A DNA stretch of 64,000 bases, from positions 32,001 to 96,000 of the IMG/VR virus record IMGVR_UViG_3300025011_000019; one strand, written 5' to 3'. Shown here piece after piece: positions 4,169 to 63,909 of this stretch; position 1 is the stretch's first letter; the number at the start of each line of letters is the position of its first letter. The stretch is from a virus. The notes under the pieces were generated by a model. It ran no database searches. It was not told the origin of the DNA and was given only the letters and a program-made list of their open reading frames with translations. The position numbers and the translations under genes were made by a program.

Positions 4169-4169
4169 A

Positions 4170-17054: not shown

Positions 17055-19326
17055 ATGCAATTCTTAACCCACTACGAGCGTTATAACGTGTCAAAATGGG
17101 AGCAACGTCAAATCATGCCACAATCTAATTTTATAGCCTTAAACAATTCATTTATGAACCACAATTCTTCTCTAATCGGTTTCCAAATTGAACATGAAGA
17201 AAAACGAGTACATTATTCAGTTAGTAATATGTTTCTCGAAAGGTTGCAAGCTCAATTCCCTGATAACTGGCTTGATATTCTAAATGACGGTATGGTTTAT
17301 GAGTTCAAACAGTGGGAGCGTGGTATTTATTCTAATATGTATCAAGAGGGATTTTTTAGTTAGTAAAATACATTACCTAAACTAAAAAATAATTATTTAG
17401 AGAATTAGCCTTAATTCTCTTCTAAGTTCATGAAAAAAGTGATATAATATATATCATAAGGCTATGAAATTAGAAGGCAATTGTGGAAAATATCTATAAC
17501 AGTTGGCCTAGAATAAATCAAAGGAGCGTGTATATTATGCAAAAAGTAACTGAAGCAGAATTCCAAAACCTTTTAAACCAAAATAACTATTCTTTAAAAG
17601 GTCTTGAAAATTATGAAATTGTTCCAGACTTCACACCTGTCGGAAACAAAATTATTGATTCATGTTTACATTCAAGGGTTAAAGATTGTGGAAGTACATT
17701 ATACTTTGGAGGCTATACTAATTCAGGTTGTTACTCATTCCAAATTATGGTCAATAAATCCTATAACACGACTGCACTATTCGTTGACGGATACAGGGCA
17801 GTATTGACTGACAATGATTCCCATAACATTTACACTTATTGCGAAGGTGATATTTCTGTTGAATCGTTCGGAAGTATCGAAGAATATCAAGTAGGAATTG
17901 CTGAAGCACTAGAATTTTATGAGGTTAATTAATAAAGGAGAGTGGACGCTAAATGATCACAATTATTAAATTAACCCATACCCTAGATGAAATCAAACCT
18001 AAATTTGATAACTGGAATGAACTTTCCAAAACTCAAAGAGATTTTCTTGAATCCTATAACGAATTCAGAATAACAAATTATGGTCAAGAAATGCTAGTAT
18101 ATGAAGGAAGACAAATTATTGCTAGTTGTTCAACATCAATAACTTATCATGATAAAATAGTTATTGACAGCATATGGACAAAAGAAGGTAAAATATTATA
18201 ACCATTCTTTATCTCGACAGTGGGCAGGTAACATTATAACAATAACAAATGTTATTTGCCTAGTTTCGAAATTAAGAAAAGGAAGTGTATTTTAATGAAA
18301 AATTTTGTAATTAATAACGTGAATATGATTAAAGAAGATTTTTCGCAAATGATTAACTATGTAGGGTCAAGAGCTATAGCATTGTCCGAAGTAGAAGAAG
18401 GTATTGCAATTAATACTTCTAGCCCTTCAAACGAAAAAGATGTTCATAGTAGTATTGTGTTTTTCTTTGAAAAATGGAATAATGCTTATAAATTAGATTA
18501 TGAAAGGAAAGACATATTGATTACTTGGAGGGAATAACCCGACCAAACACGAATTTTAAGCTAAATATGAAAGGAAGTTTTTGGAATGTATGAAATTAAT
18601 GTATCTTTAAACGGTTATCATTTATTTGCTACTCATGAAAGGTCTCTAACCAATGAAAATATGTTTAAACATGCGTTAGAAATTTTCAAAGAAAAATTTC
18701 CAGAATCAGAAGGTTATCAAATATCAGCTTCCTTATTGCAACCTAGAACTAGTAAAATATTAGATATTAATAAATTTTAACATGAAATCTAATTTTGATT
18801 GTATGGAAATAGGGCGAAGTGATATAACAATAACAGGACTTCGCCTTGATTCGAGACTATTAAAATTAGAAGGAGAGTGTTTTAGATTATGAACGCAATG
18901 GCAGAAGCATTAAATAAGGCGCAAATAAAAGCAAATGATTTTGAGGATAAACAAGTCGATGAGAAAGCAATTGAAGCAGAAATGCAAATTGATTTTCTCG
19001 AAACATGGTTGAAATTACTTGAAAGAAATGCTTCTGAAAAGGAAAAGTATAACTTTGTGATAAAGCATGGTTTTGTATCAGTTTTACAATTTAACCTGCA
19101 TATGTCATGCATGGAAGATGTTCATAACCTGAAGGATATCTTAGATGATATTCGATATGATATTTCAGCCAGTGAAATTGCAGAACGTGAAAAAGAAATA
19201 ACAGAGAAAGAGGCAATGGCAAAGAATATCAAGAACTTGTTTTATTACAAAATGATTCTAAGGGGTTTAGGTAAAAAGGATATTACTCCTTATGGAGAGG
19301 ATATTTTGAAAAGAAAACTAACATAA
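17055..19326 (+). CDS. Six small hypothetical proteins (17055-17363, 17537-17932, 17953-18201, 18295-18537, 18586-18780, 18889-19326)
   Basis: Each has an RBS; several are preceded by ATAACA hairpins. Confidence 0.7.
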
Positions 19327-19483
19327 AACCAAACTTTTATATGACAGAGCGAGAAATAAAAATAATTTATCTCGCTCTGTGTGCTTTAATTATTCTCTAG
19401 ACCGTGATATAATGTAAATATAAAATATTACGGTTTGGAGAGCATTTAAAACTCTCTTAAAATCTAAAAGGAGCGTGTTACAT

Positions 19484-21751
19484 ATGTATTATGGAGATCA
19501 AAGAGAATCAATGGTCAATCTGTCTTATGCATTAGAAGGCAAAGGTTGGGAAATTTTTGGTTATAGTGCGGATCAATCTGATTCCCAGTCTGATTATTAT
19601 CATCCTGCATCATGGGACGGTATTGCTACTAAAAATGGCTTTGTTCTCTGTGTAGATATTAAAGATTATCAAGTTCAAAATTCAGGCAAAGGAGTCTATG
19701 AGTACACAAAAAATTATACAAATGTTTCAGATTATTCTAAAATTCAAAAACTCCAAGCACTAGCTAATGATTCGGCAGCGAGTCCAGAAGAAAAAGACAC
19801 AGCACTAAAATTTATCGAGAAACTACATAATAATCAAGAAATCAAAGATCAAGACCGCGAAGCAACAAGAGTTTTAAAATATACTTATCCTATATTCCAA
19901 GCAAATCCTCCTTCTTGTAATTGGCATGTCGAAAAAGATGGTGTAATTTTAGCTAAAGGAAAAGGAGCTTTCCAATTTTCAGACCTCCCCTATGACTATG
20001 ATTGTTCAACAGGTTTACAAAAAACATGGAGAAGTAGAGAATGGACACCGGATGAGAAAGAGCAAAAAGTTATTAACAAATTCTTATCATTCGTTGCAAA
20101 AATAAATAATGTTGCATCGGGTGTGGCTAACATGGGCGATGGAACAGAAGAAACAGAACAGGAAGGATTAGAAGCCGAAAAGAATTCTGGTTATGAAACC
20201 ATCACTGTAACTGAATATAAAAGCGAAATTCAGGCTAATGAGATTGAAACACCAGAAACTTTAATTGTTGGAATGCATTTCAAATTAAAGGCAAGCTTTA
20301 CGCACTGTAATTCAGGAGATATTTATGTAATTACCACAATTCGTGAGAATCAATATAACAACAAGTGGTATATTACAGCATCGAGAATGAACCGCAAACT
20401 TAACAAAGTGTTAACTGGCAGAGCAACAGCAAGCAATAATTTTGACTGTGAACTTGAAAAGCTTAATACTTGGATAAGTAAAAAATTTATTTCCATCGTC
20501 GAACTTGAGGAAGTAAAAACGCCTTATCAAGTACAAAAATGTGTAAAAATTACAAGGGATAAGACCACTAAACCAACCCAAAAGAAAACTAAAATTGAAG
20601 ACGAAAAGACTGAAAATCCAATAACACCAGACCATGAAGAATACCAAGATGAAGTCTTGAGTGCCGATATAAGCGACACAACATCAATTAATGAAGAATC
20701 AGCAACCGAATTTATTCAGGCTTCCAAACGTCAATTATATGCCTTATATATTGGTACTAAGATCAAGACCACTGACCTAGTAATTAGCAAAGAAAAAGCA
20801 GGAGAATTGATATCTAAGAGTATCAAAGGAATCAATATCACTGAAGAACTTCAGGCATTTATAAATGGGGAGACCTTTATAACAGAAGTCTCAGAACCAT
20901 TGCAGGAATTAGAAGAGATTAAACAAGAGGAGGAAATTAAAATAATGGAAAATGTTGATAATATACTCAGTAAATTTGATGAAATAGAGGTGAAAAATAG
21001 TTCGCGTATCTCCTTAGATGATCAAACATTCTGCGAGGATCAAGAAAGAAACTACAATGAATTTATAAAATTCTCCAATGACTACATAAATTATCTAAAT
21101 GAAAATTCCTTATCAAATACATTCTATAACAGCGAGTCTTTAGTCAATGAGATGAATAAAACCAGAGATATTAAAAAGGATATGTTTATTTCTAAAGTGG
21201 TAAATTATTTTAGAGATAAATACAAAGTAACGCTAAAAAGCGAACCGATTCAAAAGAAGTATGATATTTCTGTAAAGTATGATATAATTGTCGATGAAGT
21301 CATAGAACAACTGGGAGGTTATAACTTCATTGATAAAGCAGAAAAAGAGATTAAAGACGAATTCAAAAACACTTTAAGACATGACAAAATTAAACTTAAA
21401 AATAAAAAACTATCAATTGAAAGTTTTTTTCAAACTGATTACTTTAGCATTAAGTATGGAACATATGAAGTTGGATATGGAAGCGATGAAAAGTTTTATA
21501 AGTTGTTCAAGGCCATGTCTCACTTTTTATATGAGAGTAACGAGAATCTTTTTGATAATGTATATAGCACTATAACTAGACAAAAAGATGATGATGTATT
21601 TAAAACTCATGAGATAATTGGCAAGGATATTATCAAAACTTTGAAAGTATATAAAAATGGAAAAATTGATTTAGAATTTAGCAACTCGGATCATATGCGA
21701 AAGTTTGCGAAGGATTACTGCGGATACACAGGTGATATTGCAGCCAAGTAA
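19484..21751 (+). CDS. Multidomain protein with a DUF2786-like helix pair and a C-terminal domain paralogous to the next gene
   Basis: KIQKLQALAND...PEEKDTA; the region from MENVDNILSKFDEI aligns with 21782-22609; ends in LKVYKNGKIDLEF, which resembles DUF4942. Confidence 0.65.
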   Translation: MYYGDQRESMVNLSYALEGKGWEIFGYSADQSDSQSDYYHPASWDGIATKNGFVLCVDIKDYQVQNSGKGVYEYTKNYTNVSDYSKIQKLQALANDSAASPEEKDTALKFIEKLHNNQEIKDQDREATRVLKYTYPIFQANPPSCNWHVEKDGVILAKGKGAFQFSDLPYDYDCSTGLQKTWRSREWTPDEKEQKVINKFLSFVAKINNVASGVANMGDGTEETEQEGLEAEKNSGYETITVTEYKSEIQANEIETPETLIVGMHFKLKASFTHCNSGDIYVITTIRENQYNNKWYITASRMNRKLNKVLTGRATASNNFDCELEKLNTWISKKFISIVELEEVKTPYQVQKCVKITRDKTTKPTQKKTKIEDEKTENPITPDHEEYQDEVLSADISDTTSINEESATEFIQASKRQLYALYIGTKIKTTDLVISKEKAGELISKSIKGINITEELQAFINGETFITEVSEPLQELEEIKQEEEIKIMENVDNILSKFDEIEVKNSSRISLDDQTFCEDQERNYNEFIKFSNDYINYLNENSLSNTFYNSESLVNEMNKTRDIKKDMFISKVVNYFRDKYKVTLKSEPIQKKYDISVKYDIIVDEVIEQLGGYNFIDKAEKEIKDEFKNTLRHDKIKLKNKKLSIESFFQTDYFSIKYGTYEVGYGSDEKFYKLFKAMSHFLYESNENLFDNVYSTITRQKDDDVFKTHEIIGKDIIKTLKVYKNGKIDLEFSNSDHMRKFAKDYCGYTGDIAAK

Positions 21752-21781
21752 CCAAAAAATTAAAAATTGGAGTGATTTATT

Positions 21782-22609
21782 ATGTTAAATTTATTGAGTA
21801 AATTCGATGAAATCAAAATTGAGAATGTAAACAGAATTGATGAGGAAGATAAAAAATTCTGTGAGATGTTCAACAAAATTTATGATGAAACATTAGTATG
21901 CTATAGGAACACCTTAGAAAGTTTAATATCCTTATATAATGAACAAATCCTGTTAGTAAAAAACAGTTATGATTTATGTATTTCAAAATATGGCGGTGGA
22001 AGGAACGATCTTAGTATTGACGGTGTTAAAAATGGCATTTTTCACGTAAAGGAAAATTTTATCAGTAAGATTTGTTATTATTTTAGCAGAAAATATAATG
22101 TTACTATTGATCACAGTAAAATTTATGAAAGATACAAAGATATTGAACTCCCCTACGGTAAACAAGAGAACAGAGATAAGACACTTAATATAAATTTGCT
22201 TGAATATGTACATATTGATTATAACATTATTTTGGATGAGATATTCGCTCAATTAAATGGTTTTAGTTTTCTTGAAAAGGCAATTGATGAAATTAAGCAA
22301 AAAGCAAAAATACCCTTACGTTGGTACGAACATCGTAAGTATTGGAATTATGAGGTTAAAGGTAAAACGATCAAATTTAGAACAAGTATAGATGATATTA
22401 AGTCAGCACTATATTTTTATGATAATAATGAAACACAGCTAATTGACTGCTACACTCATAACAAAGTTGATGATTATACAAGTTATGATAATGGTAATAC
22501 GAATATTAAGTTTATTAATTCTTCTTATGCTCTTGATTTTGCAAAAAGATATTTAGGATATATTGAAATGACTGAGGAGCAAAGAGAAGCATTTAAGAAA
22601 AGTTGTTAA
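21782..22609 (+). CDS. Paralog of the C-terminal third of the upstream protein
   Basis: LLSKFDEIKIENVNRIDEEDKKFCE versus ILSKFDEIEVKNSSRISLDDQTFCE; YFSRKYNVTI versus YFRDKYKVTL; QLNGFSFLEKA versus QLGGYNFIDKA. Confidence 0.8.
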   Translation: MLNLLSKFDEIKIENVNRIDEEDKKFCEMFNKIYDETLVCYRNTLESLISLYNEQILLVKNSYDLCISKYGGGRNDLSIDGVKNGIFHVKENFISKICYYFSRKYNVTIDHSKIYERYKDIELPYGKQENRDKTLNINLLEYVHIDYNIILDEIFAQLNGFSFLEKAIDEIKQKAKIPLRWYEHRKYWNYEVKGKTIKFRTSIDDIKSALYFYDNNETQLIDCYTHNKVDDYTSYDNGNTNIKFINSSYALDFAKRYLGYIEMTEEQREAFKKSC

Positions 22610-22631
22610 TTGAATTAAGGAGTTGAAGAGA

Positions 22632-25649: not shown

Positions 25650-25794
25650 GGCATAGAGGAAATGAACTAAAATGGTTTGTTTCCTCTCTTTGTTCCCTAT
25701 TATAAAGTAAAAAATAATTATTTATCTATTGCAATTTGTTTAGTTTTCATATAAAATAAGCAATAAGAAGCAAACTAGAAGGAGCGTGTAACTT

Positions 25795-28700
25795 ATGTCT
25801 AAATTAGCAGTACATAATGATGGTGTTTGCTCAGTGGTTGACCCATTCATAACAACTAATGAAAGATGTTTAACTTTTAAGTATGCAGGAAATGACAAAG
25901 TAGAGAAAGCAAAAAATCTTTCAAACTTATTAGATCAAAACAAAATAGATTATGTTTGCTATCTTGAAACAGGGAATTATTACCCTTGTCAATTTATCCT
26001 TAGAAGAAGTGGCAGAAAGTGGAATGATATAATGAAGTTGGTTAACAGTGTTCAATCTCCAAAATACGATTATGCTAAGATTGACTTCTATATAACTGAC
26101 GAAGTAAAGAAAAATGTTTTAGGTAAAATTCAAGTAATTCAATATTGTTAGTCCAATAAACCTTACATTTCCAATACTAAAATGGTATAATATGTATAAC
26201 AAAATCAACTAGAAAGAGGGAATTAAAATGGAAATTACTTTTGAACAACTGAAGAAAACTATGCTAAATGGATTAGAAGGAGAATTTAAAAGATCAATTG
26301 AAGGGATTATTGATTGCAGTGAGAAAATCGGAAAAACAGTTCCAGAAACAATGGATAAAATTACTAAGATATTATTAGGACAATAGGTTGATTGAAGGTT
26401 ACACACCAATAATTCTATAACAAATTGGCGTGTGACATTGAACCAAAATATTGTAGAAAGAAGGAATTATAATGAATTTATCAGAAATTACTCAAGATGC
26501 TTTTCAGATAATCAAAGATTTTAAACATGGTCATGGTCGTTATTCTTTGATTGTATCAAGTGAGTCAAAATATGGAGATTTTTCAATTGAATATCGAATG
26601 TTAAATAATGAAATTAATCAAATTTTGGTATCTGAGAGAATAGCACCTAATCATAGTTCTAAATTCGTGGTTACTCCAAATAATTTCCGTACTATCACAG
26701 AACAAGGATTCGAAGCAGACAAATTCTTTGATAAAATCATAAAGGAAATGAATTTTGATGCTGTAGAGGTTCGTTGTTTTCCAGCCGATATGGAAGAAAT
26801 ATATTGTCAAGAATTTAATATCTAGGTTGAAATCTGAGGTATTAGTATAACAATAACGATATGATCCCTCGACTTGAGTCTATAAATTAATTAGAAAGAG
26901 GGAATATATTATGGGTATGATTAAAGAAAATGCAATGGAATTAAAGGCTAAAATCGAGAACCGTCACACCTTCGAACCAATTAATTTAAAATGTAATGGC
27001 GGTACGTTCTATGGAAGAGGTTGCCTTAATTATGTAGATTCTGGTGATAATGTAAATGGAATTTGGTGGTTTTCTAATGGTAGTGTAGGTGGTAGTTTTG
27101 AGGCCAGTGAAGAATTTGTGCTAACCACTATCGGAATTAATTACCAAGAAATTAAGGAGTATTTTGAAGGATAAATCAATTAAGAAAGAAGGAATTATTT
27201 ATGTCTGAAATTTCAATTTGGCAATTAAACAGAACTGATAATCAAGGCAATATCATTTCAGGTTATCAAGACATTTCCAAAAACGTAACACGCGAACAGG
27301 CAATAACAGATTATCTTTACTACTTGGAGACCTCAGAAGGGATTGAAAATCCTAAGTGTGAGTGCATTGAAATTGATTGGGAATAAATTAATTGCATATG
27401 GAGAATAGGCAATAACAATAGTACCATAACAGAACCGTTATAACAGGTTGTTGCCTTCCTTTCGAGGTAAAGTTGACTAAATATGAAGGAGTGGAAATTA
27501 TGGAGAAAATTGACTCTATTAATATTCATTGTAGATGGTTTGATAGCAATACAGAAAGGGAGCGTATTCAAAGATTAATACTCAAAGGTAAAGTAGAAGG
27601 GGAAATAATCCAACATAACGAAACTGGAGAAGATTATTGGGGATGGTGGAAAAGATCCTAGTAAACAATAATTTTAAATGAAAAGGAGAAAAATTATGAA
27701 AAACTATTTAGTAGAATTAATACTTGAACCGAGACTACCACAAGGAAAATATATTGGGCGTAGGTATATAACTATTAAATTACCTGCTGATAATGAAATT
27801 GACGCAGGTAATTTTGCAAAAGAATCAATAGAAGTGTTATTGATTTCTAATGTATTGGTTATAGTAAATAAAGTATTGGAAAGTTAATGTCTAGGGGCAT
27901 TTAAAGCCCTTCTGAGCGTCAATAATGCTATAACAGTCATATATATCCATAACAGCAGAGTAAGGGACGTTCAGAAGAGTTCTGAAGACTCTAAAAATAA
28001 ATTGTTGGAGGTTATTTTATGAAAATATTGCAATTTGATTATCTTCAGGCAGAATATGATGGAGAAGTGCTAAAAGATTTTCTTATCGAACAGTTACCAC
28101 GCTTTATAAATTGTGAACAAATGCAAACATACATAAAATCATCCGATGGATTTTGGCAAGATGTTAGAAATGAAATAACAAAGCAAAAAAGAGTTAAAAG
28201 GTTCAGTGAATTAGAAGATTATAAATGGATATTAGATTACCTTAATTTTTTAGCTGACAGAGATTTAGCAAAGGCAATAAACAAAGGATTGAACACAAGA
28301 AATAAAAAGTATGCGGATCTTGAAAAATTCTTTATTAAATATTCAAAGGCAGCATGAATGTACCATTTGCTCAGGTTAACAAAAGGAGGAATAACAATTG
28401 ATTATTAATATTGATCCTTATCAAAATACCTTTTATTCTCGTAAAATCAATAATAATCTATACAGACATGAGGGCAGACAGAATACAATTGAATTTGTGA
28501 TTGATAGTAAAACTCCAAAGACTCAAGAAGAAATTCTCGATTTTTTAGAATCAAAGTCAATAGATTATCTATTAAATAGAGAAGGAACTATCATAGATAT
28601 TTAAAGAGTTTATGCTCTTTATCTTAAATCTATCATAACAGAAGCCCTATATAGGTTGATGGATTTAAGATAAAGGATATAAATCTAATCATTATATCCT

Positions 28701-30856: not shown

Positions 30857-30958
30857 ATTAACTGGTCTGATCCAGTATAAAACGCCTTAAGCTCAGAGCG
30901 TTAGCAGGGTTCATAACAATCCTGCTAGGTGGTATCAAAAAATAGGAGGTGCAATAAT

Positions 30959-43900: not shown

Positions 43901-46900
43901 AAGAATTGACGAATATATAAACGCATATGAAAGATTATATCAGTTTATAGATCAAATCAGCAATGAATTAAATCAAAATTCTTCAACATGAGTAATAATG
44001 AAACCGTAAAATTAGATGGACGAACAAGGATTTGTTTAAGGAGGGACTATATGATAAATTTAAAATATCTTCCATATTATTATGGTATAATGTCTGGAGA
44101 AGGCAAAAGTAGAATTAATTTGTTAATGCAAGAAGAAAAATTATTAACAGAAATTGAAACTATTATAAGTAAAGAGTTAGCATCTAAGATAAAAGATGAA
44201 TTTAAATCAACATATCATGACTATGATTTCATACGTTATTTAGGAATTTTGAGAAGATGTAAAATATTGTTGTTAAAAGACATTAATGATTTTGATTCAA
44301 TTAGAAAAATAATCAATAAGAATTTAGACTTTGTACTTTAAATGATAGATATTATCGGATGATATGAAAGGATGTTGAATTATGGATATTAACGAACTAA
44401 AAGAAAAGATTGAAGAAATGCTGAAAGAGGCAGAAGAATCTGCAAAGCAACCATATTTAAAGGATTTAACATATTCGTTTAGGGATGGTAAAGTATATGC
44501 ATTAGAGAAAGTTTTAGATTTATTTCATAGACTAAAATAACCCCTAACAAACAGGAAATCGAAAGGAAGTATGAATATGGATGTCTCTAAAATGTCTGCA
44601 CAAGAATTGCAAGAGTTAAGTAAGCAAGTAGAAAAGCAACAGAAACTATTAAAGGAAGAAGAATTAAATAAACGCAAAAATATTGCAAAAGCTAAAATTG
44701 AAAAATTCAGAGAGCAAAAAGATTTGATTCTGAGTTTAATCAATCATAGTAGAACTTCTTGTAGCGATACAAATGTTTGTAATGGATATGGTTCTGCTAA
44801 TTATGGTGTAAGGTGTACGAAATGTCATTTGATTGAGATATTTGATAAGGAATGGGATGATGGTGAGTGGGAAGTTGATTTTGATGTTACGATTACTAAG
44901 GTGCAATAGTAGTAGGGAATTCATAAATTGAAGTATTAAGGAGGAAAATTATGTTGTATAATGGTTCAGAAGAAACATCTTTTAATTTTGTATATGCAGA
45001 TATCCCAAATTATAAAGCACAGTGGTATTTAAAAATTTCTTCGGAAAATCTCAATGGATTAGTTGAAATTATTGAATGGTTAAAAGGCAAACTAGGTGGT
45101 ATTTATTCTAGACAATTAGAGCAATTATTAGAAGGCAAAATAAAAGAATCAAATATCCACAATCCTTTCTTATTTATAGACAATTTAACTTCTAATGTTA
45201 TTAAAACTTTAGAACAAGGGAAAACATTATTATGGGCTAGTGACGCTAATCGTTTTGAATTAAATGAAAATGTAACAGTATTAAAGGAAATTAAAACTGA
45301 CAATTACCAATTTCCTGATATTGAAGAAGTTATTAATATTGCTAAAGGTGGGGAGGTAAGCATTATTATCTCCAAAGTAATATGCCAAGGAATATCGAAA
45401 GACTACAATTTAATTCAATGTGGGAAGCAAAAGATGAAGCATTAAAATATGTAGATGAAAAACATATTAGTGTAAATACGTCTAAGATATATACTCATGA
45501 AGGTGATTAGAATTAGAATTCCATTTGAAAGACTCATTTTAAATGACGAAAAATGAAAGAAGGTATTTATTATGAAAAAATATACAAATGATGAATTAAA
45601 GCAACTTATAGGCAATATTAGCGAAGAAATAATACAGAAAAAGAATGAATTAAATTTATTACATGACAAAGTAAAACAATATAAGAGTTTATGCAATCAT
45701 AGTGATTTAACTATTAATGATTGGGGATCAGCCGATTGTAAAATATGTGGGAAACATCTTAGTTGGTACTGTCCAACTTCACCAACTTTAGAATGTGATT
45801 ATGAGCAGGAAGATGGAAGTTATAATGAAGACTCTTGCAGATATTGTGGAGATCCCGAAGAAAGGAAATGATAAAATGTCTCAATGTCTAAGATGTGGTC
45901 ACTGTTGTAAAGGTTATTTATGTTTTGTACCAAAATATGAAACAAGCGACTTATCTCCTGATTTTTTGGAAACTGTAAATGAAGATAATTTAGATGATTA
46001 TATAAATGAAAATATTGAAGAACAAGGATCTGTTTGTAAATGGTTAACCGTAGATGGGCAAGGAATGCATTCTTGTTCTGCTTATGAGAGAAGGTCTAGC
46101 ATGTGTAGAGACCATAATTCTTTGATTGGAATATGTCGAGTTGGACAATCATATTGGAAAGATAGAAAAGATATTCCTGAAGAAATTAAGAGTATATTAC
46201 AGGAGGTCAGTAATGGAATTAGATAAATTACTTGAAGAAATTGAGTATTTAAAAGAAGCAGAGGAATTATTGAATAAAATTTATACAAGTATTGGAGTTT
46301 ATAATTTGAAAATATTGGATGGTAAATTTGATTATCCTAAACCATTATCGACTATGATTAGAAATCATTTTAAGTTTGATGATAGTGAATAGAATAACTT
46401 ATTTTATAAGGAGGATAAAGGATATTATGTGGTTTCTAAAAGAAATTACTACTCCACAATTTACGCTTCTTGATATTATAGTTTGGTTGTATGCTTGGGG
46501 AATCACAAGCAATGTTTATAAAACTTTAATAGCTGGGTTAATATGGATGACAATTGAATTTATTATTAAGTATAAAATTAGAAATAAGGAAATTAAACTA
46601 AAACAACAGGAAAAATTAAAGCAGTTGGATTAACAGTCTTAGAAAGGAGACAAAATCATGGAAGAAGAATTATTAAAATCTACAATTGGTTTGGAAATTT
46701 CTAATGTTGAAATCTACAAAGATCATTGGGATACAAATATTATAAGAGTTGAATATACATTCACAAATGGTCAAAAATTAGCTATTACGGCTAGTGGCAC
46801 CGAAGCACAGTGGTTAGATATTTGTGATAGATAAATTAGAAAGGTGGTTTATTGAATGACTGAAAATGAATATCTTCAAGAAATTAACATCATCTATATT

Positions 46901-47909: not shown

Positions 47910-48068
47910 ATTTCAAGATTTCCAATTTTCAAAAATCAAGCTATAAGCCACTTTCAGCGTACACTAAATCCATTAAAAATTGCATTTTAATTGTTTTGTG
48001 TAATTGACTTTATATTGTATTTGTGTTATTATAAATACAGAAATAAATTTATCAGGAGGTACATAAAA

Positions 48069-49358: not shown

Positions 49359-49586
49359 ATGAGGATGAGAGGATACACTTTAAAAGAAATGTCACAGATA
49401 CTAACACAGCATGGATGGAAACCATCTCATAGGAAAAGTTCCCACATAACTTTCCAAAATGAAAATACTGATAACCATATTACATTACCGGATCATGGTA
49501 AATCAAAAGAAATTTGCAGGCCACTGGCAAAGAAGATACTCAAGCAAGCAGGATTATTAGAATTTGCTTATGGTTGTGAATGTTAA
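49359..49586 (+). CDS. hicA: HicA-family mRNA interferase-like protein
   Basis: KEMSQILTQHGW...RKSSHITF...ITLPDHG...AKKILKQAGL. Confidence 0.8.
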   Translation: MRMRGYTLKEMSQILTQHGWKPSHRKSSHITFQNENTDNHITLPDHGKSKEICRPLAKKILKQAGLLEFAYGCEC

Positions 49587-49812: not shown

Positions 49813-50373
49813 GTGGAAACAGTAGAACCAATCCGAGATAAGAAGAAGATCGAAGAGATGAAAATCTATTTAAAATCTCAAAGTCTTAGAGATTGGGCGT
49901 TATTTGTATTAGGAATTAATTCTGGATTAAGAATATCTGACTTACTTAAATTTAACGTTTCGGACGTAGTAGACGAAAAAGGTAAGGTTAGAGATAGGTT
50001 GATTGTAAAAGAAAAGAAGACATCTAAAACAAAAAGTTTTCCTTTGTCTGCAAACGCATTACAAGCATTGACGGAATATATTACATTTAGTAAACCAGAA
50101 ACAGTTCTATTTTCCTCTAGAAAAGGAAACGAACCGATTACTAGACAACACGCATATCGCATCATTAATAAAGCAGCACGATCTTGTGGTGTAAAGGAAA
50201 ATATTGGGAGTCACAGCCTTAGAAAAAGCATGGGTTATCATGCGTATATTGCAGGGGTAGATATTGTTATAATTCAGTCCATTTTAAATCATTCTTCTCC
50301 AAAGGAAACGTTGCGATATATCGGTATTACTCAAGATGAATTAGACGATGTATACATGGAACTTAACTTATAA
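49813..50373 (+). CDS. Tyrosine recombinase, catalytic domain only (186 aa)
   Basis: GLRISD (R), KEKKT (K), HSLRK (HxxR), LNHSS (H), TLRYIG (Y); AAGGAGG RBS with a GTG start. Confidence 0.92.
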   Translation: METVEPIRDKKKIEEMKIYLKSQSLRDWALFVLGINSGLRISDLLKFNVSDVVDEKGKVRDRLIVKEKKTSKTKSFPLSANALQALTEYITFSKPETVLFSSRKGNEPITRQHAYRIINKAARSCGVKENIGSHSLRKSMGYHAYIAGVDIVIIQSILNHSSPKETLRYIGITQDELDDVYMELNL

Positions 50374-51255: not shown

Positions 51256-51256
51256 C

Positions 51257-51676
51257 ATGTTAGCAAAACCTGAACATGGATGGGTCAATGTACAGTTAGA
51301 AGGATTCTCAGAAAGAGCAAGTTATATGACTGATATTCCAAATGATTGTTTAGATGCTTTTATCTATGCTTTACAAAATAATTCGCCTACTGTAATTTTC
51401 TTTGATGCGGAAGGTTGAGATTTTCATTTAGTTGCATCATGGTATCAAAGTTACGTAATTCTAGACAAAGATGATGTAAAAGTATTTGAAATTAAAAAAT
51501 ATTTATTTGAACTTGCAAAAGAATTATATGAAGACATCAACAACAATCTTAATGATTGGTTAAATTGGGACTATGCAGATGATGAAGAGGAGTTAAAAGA
51601 ATATAGAGAAAAACTTATTATGAAATTAAATACATTGGGAGTCGAACTTGCAAAAAGAGAAAAGTGTAGTCCATGA
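51257..51676 (+). pseudogene. Gene interrupted by a single in-frame TGA
   Basis: ...FFDAEG*DFHLVASWY...; the frame stays open 85 codons past the TGA at 51416-51418. Confidence 0.6.
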
Positions 51677-51728
51677 AAATGTTGAATTCATGTGGTGAAA
51701 ATAAATATAATTTGAGGAGGATTTAATT

Positions 51729-53199: not shown

Positions 53200-53234
53200 G
53201 TATTATATAATTTACTGGAAAGGAGAGAAAAATA

Positions 53235-55973
53235 ATGCAATTAATATCTAAAACAGAAAATAATGAGAAAACAATTAAATTCACAGTAGATGAATATGAA
53301 CATTTATTAAAAATCTTAGACATTTGTACTCCACCAGAACATCGTAATTATTTATATGAGATAATGTTAAAGATGCATAATGATTTATATAATATGGATT
53401 TGACTTAAAAGCAAGATTCGTGGTAGAAGGAGAAGATTAAAATGAAAATTGATGATGTAAAAATCAATCAAACATTAACCAAATATAATGAATTAAAAGG
53501 TGTAGATGTTCATATTGACCGCTATGATAGTGATAGCATCAAAAGACAAAAAGATATGATGTGTGGTAAACTATGGGGATATGAGGAAGCTCTTAAACAA
53601 TTAGGAATTATTGAATAAAATAAAAGGAGATTAAATAAATGAAAATTACAACCACCCTAGAAGTTTCCAAACAAGAGAAGAACATAATCTATAACGCATT
53701 AGAAGCATACATTAAATATCTCACTGAAGTGTTACCAGACAGTCCAGAAGGTAGCTGTAAGGCGTTAATTAGTGAAACCTTAACTCAGACCAATAGATTA
53801 ATATCTGAGATGGAATTAAGCATGTAATAAGCAGAAAGAAGGAATTATTAAATGGAAAACATTATGAAGATATTTGACGCTCAAGACAAAGAAGAAATGA
53901 AAAATGCTTTTATTGAAATTATCAAGGAACATTTTAAAACAGAATTAGAGGATATGGGAGTATATCTATTTGATCCTAATGAAATTGAAGAAAAGATTAA
54001 TGATGCATTTTCAGAAGTTATTAAGGAAATTAAGGCAGAATTTAAAGAAAAGTTAAGAGAACAAATGGCTGTATTTTATGATAAGAAGGTAAGTAAGATA
54101 ATGAGTGGGATTAAGTAAGGAAGAAAAGTTGTTTATTAGAAGAATGTGAAAGAGTCGTTGGAATAATGGTTGGTCAAGGGCATTAAAATCCCACGTTCAT
54201 AGTATTTAAGAAAGGAATTATCTTTATGATTTATGGATTAATACTTATAGTTTTTCTTTTAGGAATCTATTTTTTCATGATAAATATCACGGATTTAAAA
54301 AGTAACAAATTTTTATATTTGAGTTCATTAATGTTTATATCATCTTTGACACTAATAATGTTTGAATGGATATTTATGCATAGATAGATGAAAGACATCT
54401 TTGATAGGGTTAGAAGAAAGGAATAAAATAATGAAGAAAATCAAAAAACCAAAGAAAAGTAGAAAATGCAAAGAAGATTTTGTTGATAAGGTAGAAAAAT
54501 TTATTGCTACAACTGATGATTGGTGTCCTAACTATGAAGGAGATAAAGTTAGAATATTTCTATTGCGAAATAAATACAAAGAAGATAAATTTAATTTTGT
54601 TCGTATTGCAGTATGGGGTAATGATGACCTTGGTTTAGAAATGGATTTTAAAGGAACTTCCGAAGAAAATAGGCTCAAGTATATTGAATGGAAAGAAAAT
54701 ATATTTGATAAAGTGCCAGAACCTTGTACAATGGAATATTTAAGGAAACTTGGTTTTTATAACGCTTAATAATTATCCCAGAAAACACGCATTTTATCTT
54801 CTTTTAGGATTTGAAAAACGGGGCATTAATGAGCATGTGAACGTATGAAGGAGGTTCAATATTGAAAGTTGCAGTTAAAGAACAGCTAGAAAAACCATTG
54901 TTGGAAATAGGAAAATTGAGTTTGCTTTGTATAGATGAATATAAACATTATCATTTTACTGATGAAAAAGGTGTTCGTCAATCAGGAGATATAAGTGATT
55001 TAATTGCATGGTTTACTAAACAAGTTATGACTCTTGACCATGATGGAAGTATGCAAATAGATTTTACAAGGTTTATCTATTATAAAGAGTATGAAGATGA
55101 ACTTGACAATCTGTTTGGAAAGAAATAGAACGCATTTCATTTCTAGAAAGGATGATTAATTTGCATAACTTTGTGTGTGGTTGGTTAGATTTAAATGGGG
55201 AATTTCATATCTGTGGTGAATATGAACATATTAGTTTAGCAGATGAATTGGAGAATAAATTAGGGTTGAAGATATATGATCGTGAGAACTTTAAACTATT
55301 TCATGGTGAGCATTTACTTGAAAAGTTAGGTTGGGTTAAGTTTACTCAAGCAGAATTTTACAAGGAGTATGATTCCTATCCAGATAAAGGTTATGTATTT
55401 TTCCTTTGGTCAGAACATCAATTAACCAGAGGGCAAACTGATTGGTTGCTGGATAACATGTTAACATTTTCTCCTTCTCAAATTAAAATGATTGAGGACA
55501 TTTTTAGGAATCAAATGGATTTTTGGAATAGGTGATAAAACGGTGATTTCATCACCAGAAGGAGGAAATTAATGAGTGAAGAGAACTCTTTTGAATACAA
55601 AAAAGGATACTTAGACGGAATCCAAGACTGTAAAAAAGATATTAAAAAACAAATAGTTGAATTAATTGATAATGGTTTTATTTCTTCTCTTGAAGATGTA
55701 ATAAGATATTTAGAGAGCAAAGGTATGTAATATTCAATATAAGGAAGAATAAAATGGCGATTTTATAGTTAGGAGGAGAAAACGTAAATGAACATTTGTG
55801 AGAAATTAATTTGTCATTCTTGTGAAGAGGAAAAATGTGAGAATACTGAACAATGGTATGCTTGTGCAGACTTTGACCGCTATTGTGATTCTAAAGAAAT
55901 AAATGTAGAGAATATTGCATTTGGTACATGTTGTTCAAATTGCAAAGAAAAATTAGTTTATAATATAAGATAA
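53235..55973 (+). CDS. Array of about 10 small hypothetical proteins, including 55152-55535
   Basis: RBS-led ORFs with AAA-N6-TTT sites at the junctions. Confidence 0.6.
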
Positions 55974-56228: not shown

Positions 56229-56274
56229 ATGAAGATATAAATCAACCATTTTAATCATAAAAGGAGACTCAAAA

Positions 56275-56997: not shown

Positions 56998-57015
56998 AAA
57001 GGATTGTGAGATAAG

Positions 57016-59487
57016 ATGATTATTGATTACACAAAGTTTACATTAAAATGTGGTGGCAATGGGTATAATGATTGTGGACAAAATGAAATACGAAGATGTT
57101 GTGTGGCGTGTGATAAATATAAGGACTGTAATTTAAAGGGTTGGACTTGTCATCCTCTAAAAGATTTGTTTAATAATAACCCACAAGAATGCCCTGCTTT
57201 ATACTTAAAAATAGAAAGATAATTAGAAAAGGAGGTATTGTTAATGGATTTTAAAGGTAAAGATAAAAAATATATTGATCAATGGATTAGAATGATGCTA
57301 CCTAATCTTGATTTATCAGTATATGAAAGATTTGGATATCTAAGAGGATATTCAGGATACAAAGGGAAGTTGGATGGATACTTTCAAGAACAATATGAGC
57401 AATTGATTGGTATTTTGACTAAAGAATAATAAATCATTTCATTGCATTTATCTGGAATTTAATACTAGAAAAACCAAACAATTGCATGTATAATTAGCAT
57501 GAGAGGTGAAAATCATGCAAGACATTATTAATACGATTAAAATTTCAACTAATTCTAATGAAGTAAAACAAATTTTAAAACCACTAAAAATTAAAGAAGT
57601 TATTAAAATTGCAAAAGGTTTAGATATTTGTATTAGAGGAAATGAGAACAAAACTGAAGTGATTAATAATATTATTTTAGGGATTATGAAATAGAAAAGG
57701 AGAATAAATTAAATGATGTTTTCAGTTTTTGCAAAAGATTTTATACACGGAACGATAGTGCAACATAATATGACTGTAGAAGAAATTATCCAATTATTTT
57801 TAGATTGGAACGATGGGAAAGATATTGTAGTTAAGAATTTTATTATTAGAAATGTAAGTATTGAAACAATTAGCGTAAAGGAAACTGGAAGGGATGATTA
57901 AATGCAAGTAGAAATTATTCACACAAATGAAATTAAAAAATCAGAATATGTCTGGGCAGTAATTATTTGTGAAACCGATGAATGGTTAGACGATTTTCAA
58001 ACTTATCAAGAAGCAGAGAAGTTTTGTGAAGATAATGGATATGTGATTAAGGGTTATGGTAAGCGAACTGTTTCTAATGGATTTATGAAGTAAGAAATAA
58101 AATTTTTATAAAGTATTGACGTATGGGTGGTTGTATGGTATGATATGGATAAGAAGAAATTTGAGAGAAGAAAAAATTGAGAGGTGGAATTTGAGTGCAA
58201 ATTTTAAGGTTTGGATTAGTAAATACGCTTTAACTAAAGGGATTTATGAATTAGAAGTAAAACGCTGTGTTAATAGCATTCGTGATAAAGATGAATCCGA
58301 CATGGTTGAAATTAGAAAAAATGGTTTTACTAGTTACTTTCATGGAGAGGGCAAAGAATGGCACCTAACTAAAGAATCTGCAATTGTGAGAGCAGAAGAA
58401 ATGAAATTAAGAAAGATTGAATCTGTTAAAAAACAACTCAATAAGTTAGAAAAGTTAAAATTCTAAAACCATAAATTACCTCGAACGACGTATTTTAAAG
58501 ACTATGGAAGGAATGATTGTAAATGAATAAAACAGCTTACCTTTATCTTCGAAGCATTGAGGAAATCCCAAAACCTGTCCTATCAGCAGAAGATTTGAAG
58601 GATAAGTCAGATAGAACCCTATTATACGGTTATACGTGCGATAGAGATACTTGGCATGTATATTTAGAAGATGGTAAAATCTATACAGTTGTTTATAATG
58701 CTAGAGAAGATGAGATTAAACTTAACATTGTTCCTATAAATGAGAATAAGGATTTTGTGCCGAATAAGAGATTATATCCTGCAAAATGTGATTATCTTTT
58801 TTGCAAACTTCTTAAGGAGCATGGGGTTAATTTACCTTTTACAACATGGGAAGATGTAGTTGAAAAGCAAATATGTTATGGTAAAACATTGTCCGATAAA
58901 GATTAAGACTTATGGGAGGAAAATAATATGAACTTAATAGGTGTATCTTTAAAATTAACAGATCAAAAATTAGAAATAGAAGTGGCGAGATTACCAATTA
59001 TTAAAGAAACTGATAAAGTTATTAAACTTAATAGTAATAGCGAACTGGTTTTTGATTGTTTTGTTAATATACCAAAAGACAAAATAGGAATTGTTCAAAA
59101 GGGTAGATTCAGTGAAAGTGTTGGTGGTTTCGAAAGAAAGTTGTGGGATACAGATGATTCTCCTGAAAATGAACAAAAAATGATTGAACATTTAAAGATT
59201 TGTGCAAGAAATGAAATGGAAAGACGTAAATATACTTTTAACAAAATGCTAGAAAATTTAAATAGTCGATGAAATTATTCATTTAATTGATGAAAGAGAG
59301 GTTATTAAAAATGAGTGTTGTTACAACATATGATGAAAAACGAGATGAATTAAGGTTTCAATTAAGTAAATGTTTAACATTGGCAAGAGAGATGTTAGAT
59401 GAGAATATTTGGGGTTTTGAAGAAATGAAAAGTGATTACGCCACTGATTTGTATGTAGCAGTAAAAAAAGCAAAAGACTTGGTGTAA
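57016..59487 (+). CDS. Array of nine small hypothetical proteins
   Basis: RBS-led ORFs. Confidence 0.6.
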
Positions 59488-59587
59488 AAAATATGCTCAT
59501 AAAAACCTAATATAATTATTTCAATCATATCTATATCATGTTAATATAATTATATTAGGTTATATCCAAAGGGAGGAATTACATAAA

Positions 59588-60469
59588 ATGATCAGACATG
59601 TAGGATTCGCTTGTATGAGTAAAAAATGCAATACAAAATATCAAATATTTAGATTAGCATCATTTAGTGAATACAGATTAAAACAAACAATTGCTCATAA
59701 TCTAAAAGAAACTGAGCGTACAATCCAACATTGCATTTCTGAAGGAATTAAATTATTCAGAATCAGTTCTGATTTAGTTACATTTGTTACTCATGAAATT
59801 ATGAAAGATATTGATTATATGTCTTGGATGCAATCTGATTTAAAAAGGATTGGTGATATAGCAAAAAATAATAATATGATATTGTCAATGCATCCTTCTC
59901 AAATGTGTGTATTATCAAGCAATAAAGATGAAGTTGTAAATAATTCTATCAAAGATTTAATTTATCATTATGATATTCTTAATGCTATGGGCCTTGATGA
60001 TTTTAATATTATAATTCATGCTGGTGGAGTTTATGGGAATAAAAGTGAAGCAATGAAGAGATTTATTAATGTTTTCAATAGTTTGCCTTTGGAATTGAGA
60101 AATCATATCTTGCTAGAGAATGATGACAAAAGTTATACTGTAAGTGATGTAATGAGAATACATCGAGAAACTGGAGTCAGAGCTGTGTTAGATATACATC
60201 ATATGTACTGCAATAATGATGGTACAGAATTAGATTTAGAAGCCATATTTGCTACTTGGAAGGATGGTAGAGTACCTAAGATTCATCTTAGTTCACCAAA
60301 GAGTATTGAAGCGTTTAGAAGTCATTCTGACATGATTGATTATGAATATTGTAGAGAGTTTTTTGAGAAGTATAAGGGATTAGAATTTGATGTAATGATT
60401 GAGGCAAAAGATAAGGATTTGGCTGTAGAGAAGTTTGTTGAGGATTATAGGAGAGTGATATGTGAGTGA
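59588..60469 (+). CDS. uvsE: UV damage endonuclease
   Basis: GFACM, FRISSD, SMHPSQ, IIHAGG, LENDD, LDIHH, PKIHLSSP, RSHSD, VMIEAKDKD. Confidence 0.93.
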   Translation: MIRHVGFACMSKKCNTKYQIFRLASFSEYRLKQTIAHNLKETERTIQHCISEGIKLFRISSDLVTFVTHEIMKDIDYMSWMQSDLKRIGDIAKNNNMILSMHPSQMCVLSSNKDEVVNNSIKDLIYHYDILNAMGLDDFNIIIHAGGVYGNKSEAMKRFINVFNSLPLELRNHILLENDDKSYTVSDVMRIHRETGVRAVLDIHHMYCNNDGTELDLEAIFATWKDGRVPKIHLSSPKSIEAFRSHSDMIDYEYCREFFEKYKGLEFDVMIEAKDKDLAVEKFVEDYRRVICE

Positions 60470-60502
60470 TTAAAAAGTTATAATTAAAAAGGAGGAAATA
60501 TT

Positions 60503-61775
60503 ATGGAAAAGAATTATCATTGCAATCGCTATAAATGTCAAGATGAAAGATTAATCCCAAGAGTTCAAATATCAAAATATATGCGTAATATGTCATTAGA
60601 ATATCCCAATGATGAGCAATTATTAAATGATTGGAAAGAATACTATAAGGCAATGTGTAATGATATTAGAAGGTCTTGGAACATTGAAGGAATTATTGCA
60701 ACTGCATATTCTAAAGAAGAAAATGCAGTTTATGTTTATGAATTTCCTGTGAAAGCAGACGATACTATATTTTCACCTAAAATACAATGGGATGATGAAA
60801 TTAAAAGATATTATATCGAAATGTAGATTATCATCCTATAAATGTGTGGTTTGAAGGGAGGAAATAAACCATGTTGTATTTTGCTTTAGGTTTAATAGTT
60901 GGATTATTAGCATTTAATTTGGTATGGTTAGTTAAAATCGAAATGAAATTGCCTTAAAGATGATGGAAGGAGGAAATTGTTTTGATTCAAAGAAATATTA
61001 CTTATTTTGGTCAACAAATTATTGTAGCTTGTGATGAGAAATGTAATAAAGCATGGGGTATAAATAATAGGCCAAAAATTCAATTCGATGATAATAATGA
61101 AGATGATTATGCTTACTTGTCAGATGATGAATTAAATGAAGCTCCTATTGATCCTGGAACTTATGAGGGATTTGAAATGAGTGGAAAACCAGAAATAAAA
61201 GAAGAAAGGTTAAATAAATGGTGTATTAGAGAATGTGAGAGAAGCTATAGAGGTCAATTGCCTATTGAATTGAAAGATTTTAGTAAGAAGATTTATAATA
61301 TTCCATCGTTGCATATAGTCAATGAAGTATCTAAAATGGATTATTCTGTTTGGATAACTTTAGACAATAAGCACTTAAAGATATCTGAAATGACTACAGA
61401 TCATATTAAGAATTGTATTAAAATGATCAAGCGCAGTAAATTTTTAGATGTCATGGAGCGTTATGATACAGTTCCAGAACCACCTCCAAGATATGTTGTT
61501 GATTATGACCAATACAAACCATATTTAAATATTTTTAAGAATGAATTAGAAACACGTTGAAAAGTGATTTAAAAGGAGGTTTATAAATGGATAAAGACGA
61601 TTTAATGTTTATGAGAAGGTCTACTTGGTGCAAGACAAAAGGAGAGTTATTATCAATTCTTGAATATTATATGAGTTCAAGAGATGGTAAGCAAGAAGAA
61701 GAAAATTTTCAAATAATGTATCGAAAAATACATGAGTTTATTAAGTGGATGGATGAAGAAAGTCCAATAGCATGA
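60503..61775 (+). CDS. Hypothetical proteins, including the Cys-rich two-domain 60982-61560
   Basis: CDEKCNKAWG...NKWCIRECERS plus a C-terminal WIT...ISEMTTDHIKNC module. Confidence 0.65.
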
Positions 61776-61828
61776 ATGTCTAGTTTCGAGGGATATACTT
61801 TATATAATTGGTACAATATGTTATATTA

Positions 61829-62089
61829 TATACATACTGTTGCTTCTGTATATTTAGTGAGTAAAGTGAGAAGGGGATATTAAAATCGATTTTAAAAGTG
61901 GAGATGTTGTTCTATTAAAAAGCGGAAGTCCTGCAATGACTATAGAAAGTATAGGGGTATACAGTGGTGCAACTAAAGCAATATGTATTTGGTTTGATGG
62001 AGCTAAAAAGTATAGCGATTCATTCGAGTTGCCAACTTTAGAAATATATGAATAAATAGTTATATTATACAGAAGTAACAGTTTGTATA
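61829..62089. repeat. 24-bp inverted repeats flanking a YodC-like ORF
   Basis: tatacatactgttgcttctgtata (61829-61852) and tatacagaagtaacagtttgtata (62066-62089), 22/24 complementary. Confidence 0.75.
61885..62055 (+). CDS. YodC/DUF2158-family protein with a non-canonical (ATC or ATT) start, not in the track
   Basis: FKSGDVVLLKSGSPAMTIE...ICIWFDG...F....L; RBS GAAGGGGA lies 7 nt before ATC; upstream in-frame stop at 61867. Confidence 0.7.
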   Translation: MDFKSGDVVLLKSGSPAMTIESIGVYSGATKAICIWFDGAKKYSDSFELPTLEIYE

Positions 62090-62118
62090 ATATTATATTT
62101 AAAGGAGTGAGAAATTAA

Positions 62119-63909
62119 ATGGATTTTAAAGAAATTGTTGATAGATTTATATTAAAACGAGGGATTAAGGCAGTAGTCAAAAGCATAAAAATAGAAGGTG
62201 ATAAATGTGACATATTTTTAATGGGTGGATTCAGTACCAGTTTGGAATTGGTTGGTGATGTATTATATAAAGATGATAATTTTTATTGTAAAGTGGAAAA
62301 TCTGTTTGTATAAACAAGGAATTGAAAGGAGAATTATTATGCATTGTAAATTTTGTCAAGAGAAAATGGAATTTGATTCATCAGAGGGTATTGGGCACAG
62401 TGAAGTTCATCATTATGAGTGTATTATGTGTGAATCTAGCGTTACAGTTCATGAAAATGGCGAAGAGGATACGTGGGAGTCTGGTGAAAAGTGATACATT
62501 AAAACGAGGATATAAAAGGGTAAAAGGAGCGAGGATAATGAAAGAAATTGAACTTGAAAAATATTTAAGGAATCATAATTTTCCTGATAGCAATCTAAAA
62601 GTTAAAATAAATGATATGTTTTACGGGGTTAGAAAATGGTGATCAAATAATTATTGAAGCAGAATAAATCTAAGAATTGAATGGAAGGGATGATAATATA
62701 TGCTTTGTGAAGCGTGTGGTTATTCACACAATATGTATGAATTAAAGATGCCATTTTTACAATTATCATTTGTTACAGAAGATAATAAAGAAGTTAATGT
62801 CTATAGTGGAGTGTATAATGATGGGAGATATTCTAAGCAACTCATCTACCTATATAGATGTCCTAAGTGTAAATCAATTGTAAGCGAGTGAAACTTTGAT
62901 TAGATGGGAAGTTAGGAGGTAATTATGGATAAATATATTAAAGAACTGGAACAAAAAACCAATATAGATTTAACCGAACGAGAGCAAATGATTTTTAAAT
63001 ATGCTTATATTTGTGGAAAGCAAGAATTAGAAAACACTAATTCAACAATAACTAAAGTTATCAATAAAATAGTTGGTGGGTTTAGAGATTTTAGTTTTAG
63101 AGACAGCACGAATTCTTTAGCAAAAGACTTGAATCTAAACTGCAAAATTGATTATGTAGCTACACTATTTAGATTTCCATGTAATAGTGTGGAATATAGA
63201 ATTACATTAAAAGGCAAGAAGTCAGACATTGATATGTTTTGTCAAAGTATTTAATATGTTTAACGAAGGAGGAATTAATTAAATGAAACTACTTAAATAT
63301 TCTCACTCAAAAACATTTCATTATGATAATGCCGAAGAAAGATTAAATCATATCAAAGAAATGGAACAAGATGGTTGGGCTTGTGGTGGTCAGGTTAAGG
63401 AGTTTATAGGCAATTTATGGTTTAAAGATGATGTAGAGGATGAAAGTAAATATTATTATGTTGGTAGATTTTATAAAGAAGAGAGGGAATAATTATATGG
63501 CTGAATTTTGTATTGATTGCTTCAAGGAATTATTATTCAATGATTATGAAGATAGTCAAATTATTCTATCTGATAATTTGGATATATGCGAAGGGTGCGC
63601 TGAATTTAAACGTGTTGTGATTAGGATAATTGATTGATATACTCATTTAAACTATAAATAGGAGGAATAATTATGTCTAATTGGAAGGAACAACTTAAAA
63701 AAGTAGAACAATGTCCACAAAGACAAGATTCTTTGATTGATCAGATGCAGGATTTACATTATATTGCTAATAAATTTGGTTTTTATGATGCAGCAGATTC
63801 AATTAAACGAAGATTTATGGAGAAAAGATGTACTATTGGTATGGATTATAAAAAATGCTCATCGATAGAGTACGGCCAATCATGTTTAGATTGTGTGAAT
63901 TTTAAATAA
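62119..63909 (+). CDS. Array of about eight small hypothetical proteins, several with CxxC zinc ribbons
   Basis: RBS-led ORFs. Confidence 0.6.

Follow-up and report, generated by a model that had tools for sequence, protein, structure and literature searches.

It has long been asked how mosaic phage genomes exchange unrelated genes at clean boundaries while gene order stays unscrambled, and a short palindrome that recurs between the genes of a virus contig from IMG/VR bears on that question. The stretch analyzed here (the window) is 64,000 nucleotides long and comprises bases 32001-96000 of the 146,043-bp record IMGVR_UViG_3300025011_000019 (G+C 29%), in which almost every gene beyond 33 kb is small and lies on the + strand. 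An original prediction, made from the letters of the window, described genes delimited by AAA-N6/7-TTT sites and took these for insertion scars or active sites of an integron-like cassette system, with a repressor or nucleoid-protein operator as the alternative. By its YonO RNA polymerase and its YopQ and MrpR/SroF homologs, the phage is SPbeta-like. The reading favored here, with a probability of roughly 60%, is that the palindromes serve the phage as designated crossover joints, each addressed by the six bases at its center; the operator alternative is disfavored.

A 28-bp palindrome in intergenic DNA

In intergenic DNA, the pattern AAA-N6-TTTBAW occurs 37 times across the whole contig against 11.7 ± 3.1 in dinucleotide shuffles (z 8.2), and 18 times against 3.4 ± 2.0 (z 7.5) in the region first described, window positions 18541-62910, so the predicted motif is real. 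A count of the originally described pattern over the whole window and both strands (62 against 52.8 ± 7.5) is not above chance, and is misleading because coding DNA swamps the intergenic signal. The spacing profile peaks at N6 only, apart from an N7 shoulder due to AAAA runs. The AAA-N6-TTT core was described correctly, but the full motif is longer: a 28-bp 11-6-11 imperfect palindrome with the consensus aTCCnWTaAAA-N6-TTTtAWnGGAt, reached twice, by a matrix iterated from seeds and by unseeded palindromic hard expectation maximization (EM; information content 15.0 against 9.6 in shuffled DNA). With the half-site matrix, inverted pairs peak at one spacer length only, 6 bp (157 pairs, with about 20 at each other spacing), and neither direct nor everted pairs show a spacing peak. 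The logo is symmetric about its center, and both arms match one consensus. At a lenient cut-off the contig holds 59 sites against 12.6 ± 4.1 in block shuffles; about 50 copies are spread across the contig, about 25 of them in the region first described, and all have the same orientation. The motif is degenerate, as the strict pattern CC-N4-AAA-N6-TTT-N4-GG has zero exact copies, and neither exact 4-mer dyad enrichment nor soft EM recovered it, the latter collapsing to background. Fourteen of the 18 examples first listed score as sites, the exceptions being those at window positions 36276, 39373, 55536 and 56238. G+C is higher in the spacer than around it (C 0.21 and G 0.22 against 0.12 and 0.16), as had been noted.

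The predicted position of the sites, at the stop codon and before the next ribosome-binding site (RBS), holds: 27 of 40 begin between -9 and +7 nt from the stop codon, and 11 embed a TAA stop at one identical motif position. At compact junctions the site occupies the whole gap, with the RBS no more than about 30 nt beyond, and the GGA of the motif sometimes doubles as the Shine-Dalgarno sequence. To say that genes are delimited by the sites was an overstatement, as 40 of the 212 co-directional junctions (19%) have one, and the range given was too narrow, as sites occur over the whole 146-kb contig.

Two inverted arms held at a fixed distance by a 6-8-bp spacer form the layout of tyrosine-recombinase core sites, and the inverted 11-bp arms and rigid, asymmetric 6-bp spacer found here support assigning the palindromes to that architecture. 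Tyrosine recombinases such as Cre, FLP and Xer exchange strands at the arm/spacer borders between sites of equal spacer. The core sites dif, loxP and FRT, and the heterospecific lox and FRT sites of laboratory cassette exchange, have the same inverted arms and asymmetric 6-8-bp overlap; partners among heterospecific sites need equal overlaps, unequal overlaps do not recombine, and the cassette stays in its slot. The present sites are known from sequence comparison. The 28-bp 11-6-11 layout is also that of dif and of the pdif modules of Acinetobacter plasmids, where many dispersed sites bound modules in varied contexts. In sites of the pdif type the XerC arm differs from the XerD arm and orientation alternates from site to site, whereas here one consensus serves both arms, all sites point the same way, and unique, ordered spacers are common to relatives. 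Some arms resemble, in shifted register, what is presumably the XerC-side arm of Bacillus dif. The PeSLs (promoter early stem-loops) of T4-type phages are likewise short intergenic repeats, found on either side of small accessory genes at points where genes are shuffled; they combine an early promoter with a real stem-loop and are thought to act via homologous recombination, whereas the sites described here have no promoter, no hairpin covariation and an address-like center, and do not qualify as PeSLs.

Spacers and gene content in related phages

The contig was compared with 17 loci from related motif-bearing IMG/VR contigs (0.3-0.9 sites per kb), in 20-kb pieces. These relatives are strongly mosaic, with DNA-level alignment covering only 15-20% of each 20-kb locus. 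Where one flank of a junction is homologous between two genomes, the other flank is also adjacent in 4 of 151 cases at site junctions and in 173 of 789 at site-less junctions; breaks in synteny accordingly stand at 147/151 (97%) against 616/789 (78%), with an odds ratio of 10.3 and a Fisher p of 2e-10. A break is seen at every one of the 72 site junctions that have any match. Breakpoints of gene content at the sites are what the original prediction had anticipated of recombination sites, although not in its integron-like form.

What is retained at these breakpoints is the spacer. Of 18,760 between-contig pairs of sites in which both 72-nt flanks lack homology, 110 have identical spacers against 12.2 expected, a nine-fold excess (p 1e-64); in the controls, reverse-complement spacers matched in 2 pairs and 6-mers beside the site in 45-47. 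In such same-spacer pairs identity is 1.00 over the six spacer positions and drops to 0.57 and 0.59 in the arms against a control of 0.55, the flanks also being at control level. A shared spacer with limits at the arm/spacer borders, the generic expectation for a recombinase, was thus found by comparison alone. The spacer alone is kept where one or both flanks have been replaced. With the left flank homologous, 8.5 of 11 positions of the left arm are identical, against 6.3 of 11. Orthologous sites with both flanks conserved amount to only 4 pairs, too few for rates.

Spacers differ from site to site, as first noted, and within one sequence they never repeat (0 against 14.7 expected at the between-genome rate, P 4e-7). 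Their order is kept between genomes, with 235 concordant and 2 discordant comparisons of common spacers. Thirty-two slots are bounded by the same two spacers in different genomes, and 23 of these contain unrelated DNA of different length, 8 contain homologous DNA, and 1 shows a relation at the protein level only. For the sites of the window that fall inside the coverage of the relatives' loci (the sites at 54783, 59272, 60841, 61775 and 62667), the spacer is present in 1-5 other contigs. The tolerance of non-identical spacers known from Tn916, which the original prediction had invoked, is not needed, as partner sites share their spacer.

The same sites are present in phages of Bacillus. In SPbeta, TAAAA-N6-TTTTA occurs in 33 copies against 0-3 at other spacings, one 44-kb stretch alone holding 18 against 0.66 expected, and most of these palindromes begin with the stop codon of the upstream gene. 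Five Spbetaviruses (SPbeta, phi3T, SPR, Goe11 and Goe13) were compared over a 29-kb stretch. Each has 14-16 sites with zero spacer repeats within a phage, their common spacers follow one another in perfect order (420:0), as many as five left-flank types accompany one spacer, and slot lengths vary. In 29 of 31 pairs with homology on one flank only, the spacer is kept. In a laboratory evolution experiment with SPbeta and phi3Ts, 15 of 16 recombination sites lay in homologous DNA and one was non-homologous (10.1101/2020.05.06.055103). That sole non-homologous junction is intergenic, after the phi3Ts gene ending at 107382 and beside SPbeta yosA (10.1101/2020.05.06.055103), and both parental intergenic regions contain a site with the spacer TATTCC. 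This junction is a lead rather than proof.

Arms that are not inherited with their spacer, spacers that are unique and ordered, and unrelated genes in equal slots form a pattern that neither descent alone nor a restricted repertoire of spacers readily explains. It is the residue that exchange at the arm/spacer borders between equal-spacer sites would leave. Taken together, the comparisons point to in-register exchange at position-specific sites instead of cassette acquisition.

In the proposed mechanism, the two inverted 11-bp arms would bind a two-fold-symmetric protein or two protomers, and the asymmetric 6-bp center would serve as an address, unique within a genome and recurring in relatives as one series with its order kept. 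Two phage genomes would exchange DNA at sites of equal center, one parent contributing the left arm with all that lies upstream of it and the other parent the right side. A single reciprocal exchange between co-resident genomes at one site would join all of the left to all of the right, and repeated exchange over time would produce slot-wise mosaicism, in which genes are swapped slot by slot with their order unscrambled, no gene cut, and no need for similarity between the swapped genes. Unique asymmetric spacers would also prevent deletions inside one genome. For a tyrosine-type site-specific recombinase, strand exchange across an identical overlap would require matching centers and would leave sharp limits between arm and center.

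The broader proposal is that SPbeta-family phages carry a natural cassette-exchange system, a genome-wide set of ordered heterospecific sites with 6-bp addresses at which co-infecting or resident relatives would trade non-homologous genes slot for slot through a dedicated recombinase; the odds on this are about even. A literature search, which was not exhaustive, turned up neither such a system nor any natural set of about 50 heterospecific sites spread along a genome. If a recombinase acts on the sites, phages with little common sequence would have a built-in means of ordered gene exchange, a natural counterpart of laboratory cassette exchange, and about 50 mutually exclusive recombination sites would serve genome engineering. 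Because SPbeta and phi3T of Bacillus subtilis have the same sites, the idea is directly testable by standard genetics.

Evidence against exchange, candidate enzymes and alternative readings

Several results weigh against the crossover reading. Where the downstream gene alone is homologous, in 35 of 50 cases homology ends at motif positions 20-41, the outer boundary of the right arm, and a right arm with a homologous right flank shows no gain in identity (6.44 against 6.48 of 11; n = 9); simple reciprocal exchange at the spacer predicts neither result. The original prediction proposed a check of whether breakpoints between relatives fall within the spacer, and the ends of high-scoring segment pairs are not enriched near sites relative to random intergenic positions, with none inside a spacer; this analysis is superseded by the flank-by-flank tests because alignment ends run through the conserved AAA and TTT. 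The comparisons are not independent, since the genomes are related, and the non-homologous SPbeta x phi3Ts junction is located to gene resolution only. Finally, no enzyme is linked to the sites and no recombinase is common to all site-bearing phages: a complete 59-kb phage (G002) has a 57%-identical copy of the recombinase encoded here and lacks the motif, SPbeta has the sites and lacks that recombinase, and the present contig has no homolog of YopP or YomM, the orphan tyrosine recombinases of SPbeta.

That a site-specific recombinase performs the exchange, and which protein it would be, is an inference. The candidates are the 186-amino-acid YoeC-like recombinase of this phage, YopP or YomM in SPbeta, or a host enzyme, all unproven; for the first, this is because SPbeta has the sites without that protein. 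The YoeC-like protein is the sole PF00589 match in the contig and keeps the residues R, K, HxxR, H and Y in alignment with XerA and XerD. Copies at 74% and 56% identity are encoded by motif-bearing relatives, the nearest chromosomal homologs (47-63% identity) are in Alicyclobacillus and Clostridiaceae, and about 4000 similar short proteins in Bacillota form a large uncharacterized recombinase family, some members of which are named YoeC. A relationship to YopP or YomM was considered and rejected, there being no significant similarity to either. The 59-kb phage that lacks the motif (G002, loci L028-L030; G+C 42%) has a weak candidate palindrome with TATAGC/GCTATA arms (information content 13.4 against 11.1 in shuffled DNA), possibly the site in diverged form.

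Because the right arm shows no clear linkage to the downstream gene and many homologies end at the outer edges of the site, a serious rival is that the palindromes are landmarks, although on balance this is rather unlikely. A DNA-binding protein of the phage or its host (for example a roadblock repressor, silencer or activator) would bind them at the front or end of a block, and general or short-homology recombination would resolve in the 12-16 bp of identity formed by AAA, spacer and TTT. A palindrome with independent half-sites at rigid spacing, lodged tightly between stop codon and RBS, suits such a protein; a strong -35 element lies just downstream of 19% of sites against 1% of controls, SPbeta-like phages encode annotated single-strand annealing and exonuclease functions, and the absence of a common recombinase needs no explaining. 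The clusters of breakpoints at the outer edge fit at least as well as with designated crossovers. A landmark, however, gives no reason for a genome-unique center that is kept perfectly while the consensus arms are not, the majority of sites have no nearby promoter and the strongest early promoters have no site, and 12-16 bp of identity gives general recombination little to work with. Promoter-like and terminator-like matches in the region are at chance level, and a reading of the palindrome as a host sigma-A or YonO promoter was rejected, the site being symmetric and too near the start codon.

Very unlikely is a reading of the sites as operators of a master repressor of the MrpR/YopR/SroF type, the phage's equivalent of the SPBRE and Phi3TRE operators. 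A YopQ-YopR pair is encoded, its YopR homolog being the repressor of the MrpR/SroF kind; the SPBRE and Phi3TRE boxes belong to the same phage family, are long (15-26 bp), often lie just 5' of an RBS as the palindromes do, and are read by a recombinase-fold protein, MrpR (YopR, SroF), SroF recognizing an A-tract-containing 26-bp box at many genomic locations (10.1101/2025.11.27.690993). SPbeta, however, holds both elements separately, with about 12 copies of SPBRE, directional and overlapping sigma-A promoters, alongside its 33 palindromes of different sequence. The chromatin affinity purification sequencing (ChAP-seq) of MrpR gave ten peaks, all at SPBRE promoters (PMC10516654), SroF binds a non-palindromic box as a monomer (10.1101/2025.11.27.690993), and SroF boxes differ between SPbeta and phi3T, whereas palindromes and spacers are common to both; the ChAP-seq peaks and the contrast between differing boxes and shared palindromes are what make MrpR operators so improbable. 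Nor do the sites generally overlap or follow promoters, a strong promoter lying within 90 nt upstream of 2% of sites against 11% of control gene starts, and the promoters ahead of the yopQ-yopR pair have no strong site.

Still less probable is a role in RNA, where polycistronic early transcripts would carry the motif as a weak hairpin, a terminator, a processing site or a structure that masks the RBS. The consensus is self-complementary, it lies in transcribed intergenic spacers beside the RBS, where its GGA may serve as the Shine-Dalgarno sequence, and some SPbeta copies were annotated as stem-loops by their depositors. Arms of one site, however, pair no better with each other than arms of different sites do, with 4.50 pairs within sites against 4.80 ± 0.20 between sites in this contig and 4.53 against 4.57 in the relative G001; each arm therefore fits the consensus by itself. 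Any stems would be mismatched and AU-rich, no T-run terminator signal rises above chance, and the strand-symmetric consensus and ordered, conserved spacers would be left unexplained. An RNA hairpin was rejected on the lack of arm-arm covariation in the two genomes. Independent arms, strand symmetry and rigid spacing instead point to a two-fold-symmetric protein on double-stranded DNA, that is, to a predicted dimer-type DNA-binding site rather than an RNA structure. The 'stem_loop' at 116406-116431 of the SPbeta record is the TATTCC copy of the TAAAA-N6-TTTTA palindrome, and other annotated stem-loops may be copies as well.

The integron-like system of the original prediction, with single gene cassettes captured or excised as circles at an array, is barely credible: like attC, the sites follow the stop codons of small promoterless same-orientation genes, and left arm and spacer tend to accompany the upstream gene, rather as attC accompanies its cassette, but attC is a folded single strand with little sequence conservation that needs IntI and attI, and neither feature is found here (no arm-arm covariation, and no IntI-type integrase beside attI and a cassette promoter, the sole PF00589 protein being a catalytic domain inside the array and its IntI4 match weak and confined to part of that domain), while the sites extend over more than 100 kb in fixed spacer order and the only two pure insertions found, the would-be scars, have no sites at their ends.

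Site list and neighboring features

Table 1. Palindromic sites and candidate recombinase in window coordinates (scores are half-site scores from the matrix; a dot marks a strand that is not assigned).
Feature	Position	Strand	Spacer	Score	Remarks
Site	7687..7714	.	ctcttg	19.7	Intergenic
Site	8343..8370	.	tgccca	15.0	Right arm adjoins -35 of sigma-A-like promoter at 8366; spacer common to G001
Site	10877..10904	.	atccat	18.6	-35 lies ~33 nt downstream
Site	15246..15273	.	aagaca	20.1	Spacer common to G001
Site	18537..18564	.	cacgaa	17.0	First example of the original prediction
Site	18777..18804	.	tctaat	16.6	
Site	19318..19345	.	ccaaac	15.0	Left arm contains TAA stop codon
Site	27655..27682	.	caataa	12.1	
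Site	31959..31986	.	tgttat	16.5	
Site	34598..34625	.	ggcaga	15.6	
Site	36035..36062	.	acagta	17.4	
Site	37716..37743	.	ctagtg	13.0	
Site	40513..40540	.	ccgtaa	13.2	-35 lies ~55 nt downstream
Site	43220..43247	.	gcacga	15.7	
Weak site	44333..44360	.	gataga	11.9	
Site	45520..45547	.	gactca	13.8	
Site	47968..47995	.	attgca	15.6	Right arm adjoins -35 of promoter at 48004; same place in relative L015
Candidate enzyme: 186-aa YoeC-like tyrosine recombinase, catalytic domain only	49813..50373	+			PF00589, 92 bits
Site	51669..51696	.	tgttga	15.8	L015 homology stops at right edge
Weak site	54178..54205	.	tcccac	11.1	
Site	54775..54802	.	cacgca	15.3	Spacer common to one other contig
Site	59264..59291	.	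ttattc		Left end of slot TTATTC-GTGTGG present in five other contigs
Site	60833..60860	.	gtgtgg	20.4	Right end of slot TTATTC-GTGTGG; spacer in five contigs with five left-flank types
Site	61767..61794	.	gtctag	18.1	Spacer common to contig c96, both flanks unrelated
Site	62659..62686	.	ctaaga	12.9	Spacer common to three contigs

Megablast against GenBank phages gave no match and no close relative, and IMG/VR contains a group of relatives of this phage. Its YonO single-subunit RNA polymerase is encoded in two exons with 55% and 52% identity to SPbeta YonO; the split gene lies outside the window at genome 13611-17285 (-), its two pieces about 1 kb apart. The YopQ homolog is followed by the MrpR/YopR/SroF homolog at genome 112361-114750, the latter at 113740-114750 (PF22822, 64 bits; PDB 9rd5, E 3e-25; 8a0a, E 4e-11). 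A few genes upstream of this pair, an AgrB-family protein (PF04647, 1.4e-34) is encoded at genome 110713-111345 (+) and may belong to a peptide-signaling module at the location where the SPbeta genome carries its arbitrium system. A 274-amino-acid MazF/PemK-domain protein, part of a toxin-antitoxin system, is encoded at L003:13861-14685 (+), and a HicA toxin gene at window 49359-49586 (+) lies just 5' of the small recombinase gene, followed by a 227-nt gap without a called gene.

Seven near-perfect sigma-A promoters with A/T-rich upstream elements stand in a run at window 1323-7067 (genome 33323-39067), four of them matching at 12/12. Five have TTGACATT or TAGACATT in common, and in several a half-site resembling CCTTAAAA lies 50-60 nt upstream; the full palindrome is absent from all seven. 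Relatives keep the DNA sequence of a block at window 51257-51705 (91.5% in L015; G001 has it too). The block ends at the site centered at about 51682; it has no long open frame past 51418 and no match in Rfam, and may be a non-coding RNA. A Pistol self-cleaving ribozyme lies in intergenic DNA of the early gene array at window 30861-30934 (+), scoring 55.3 bits against a gathering score of 34.5.

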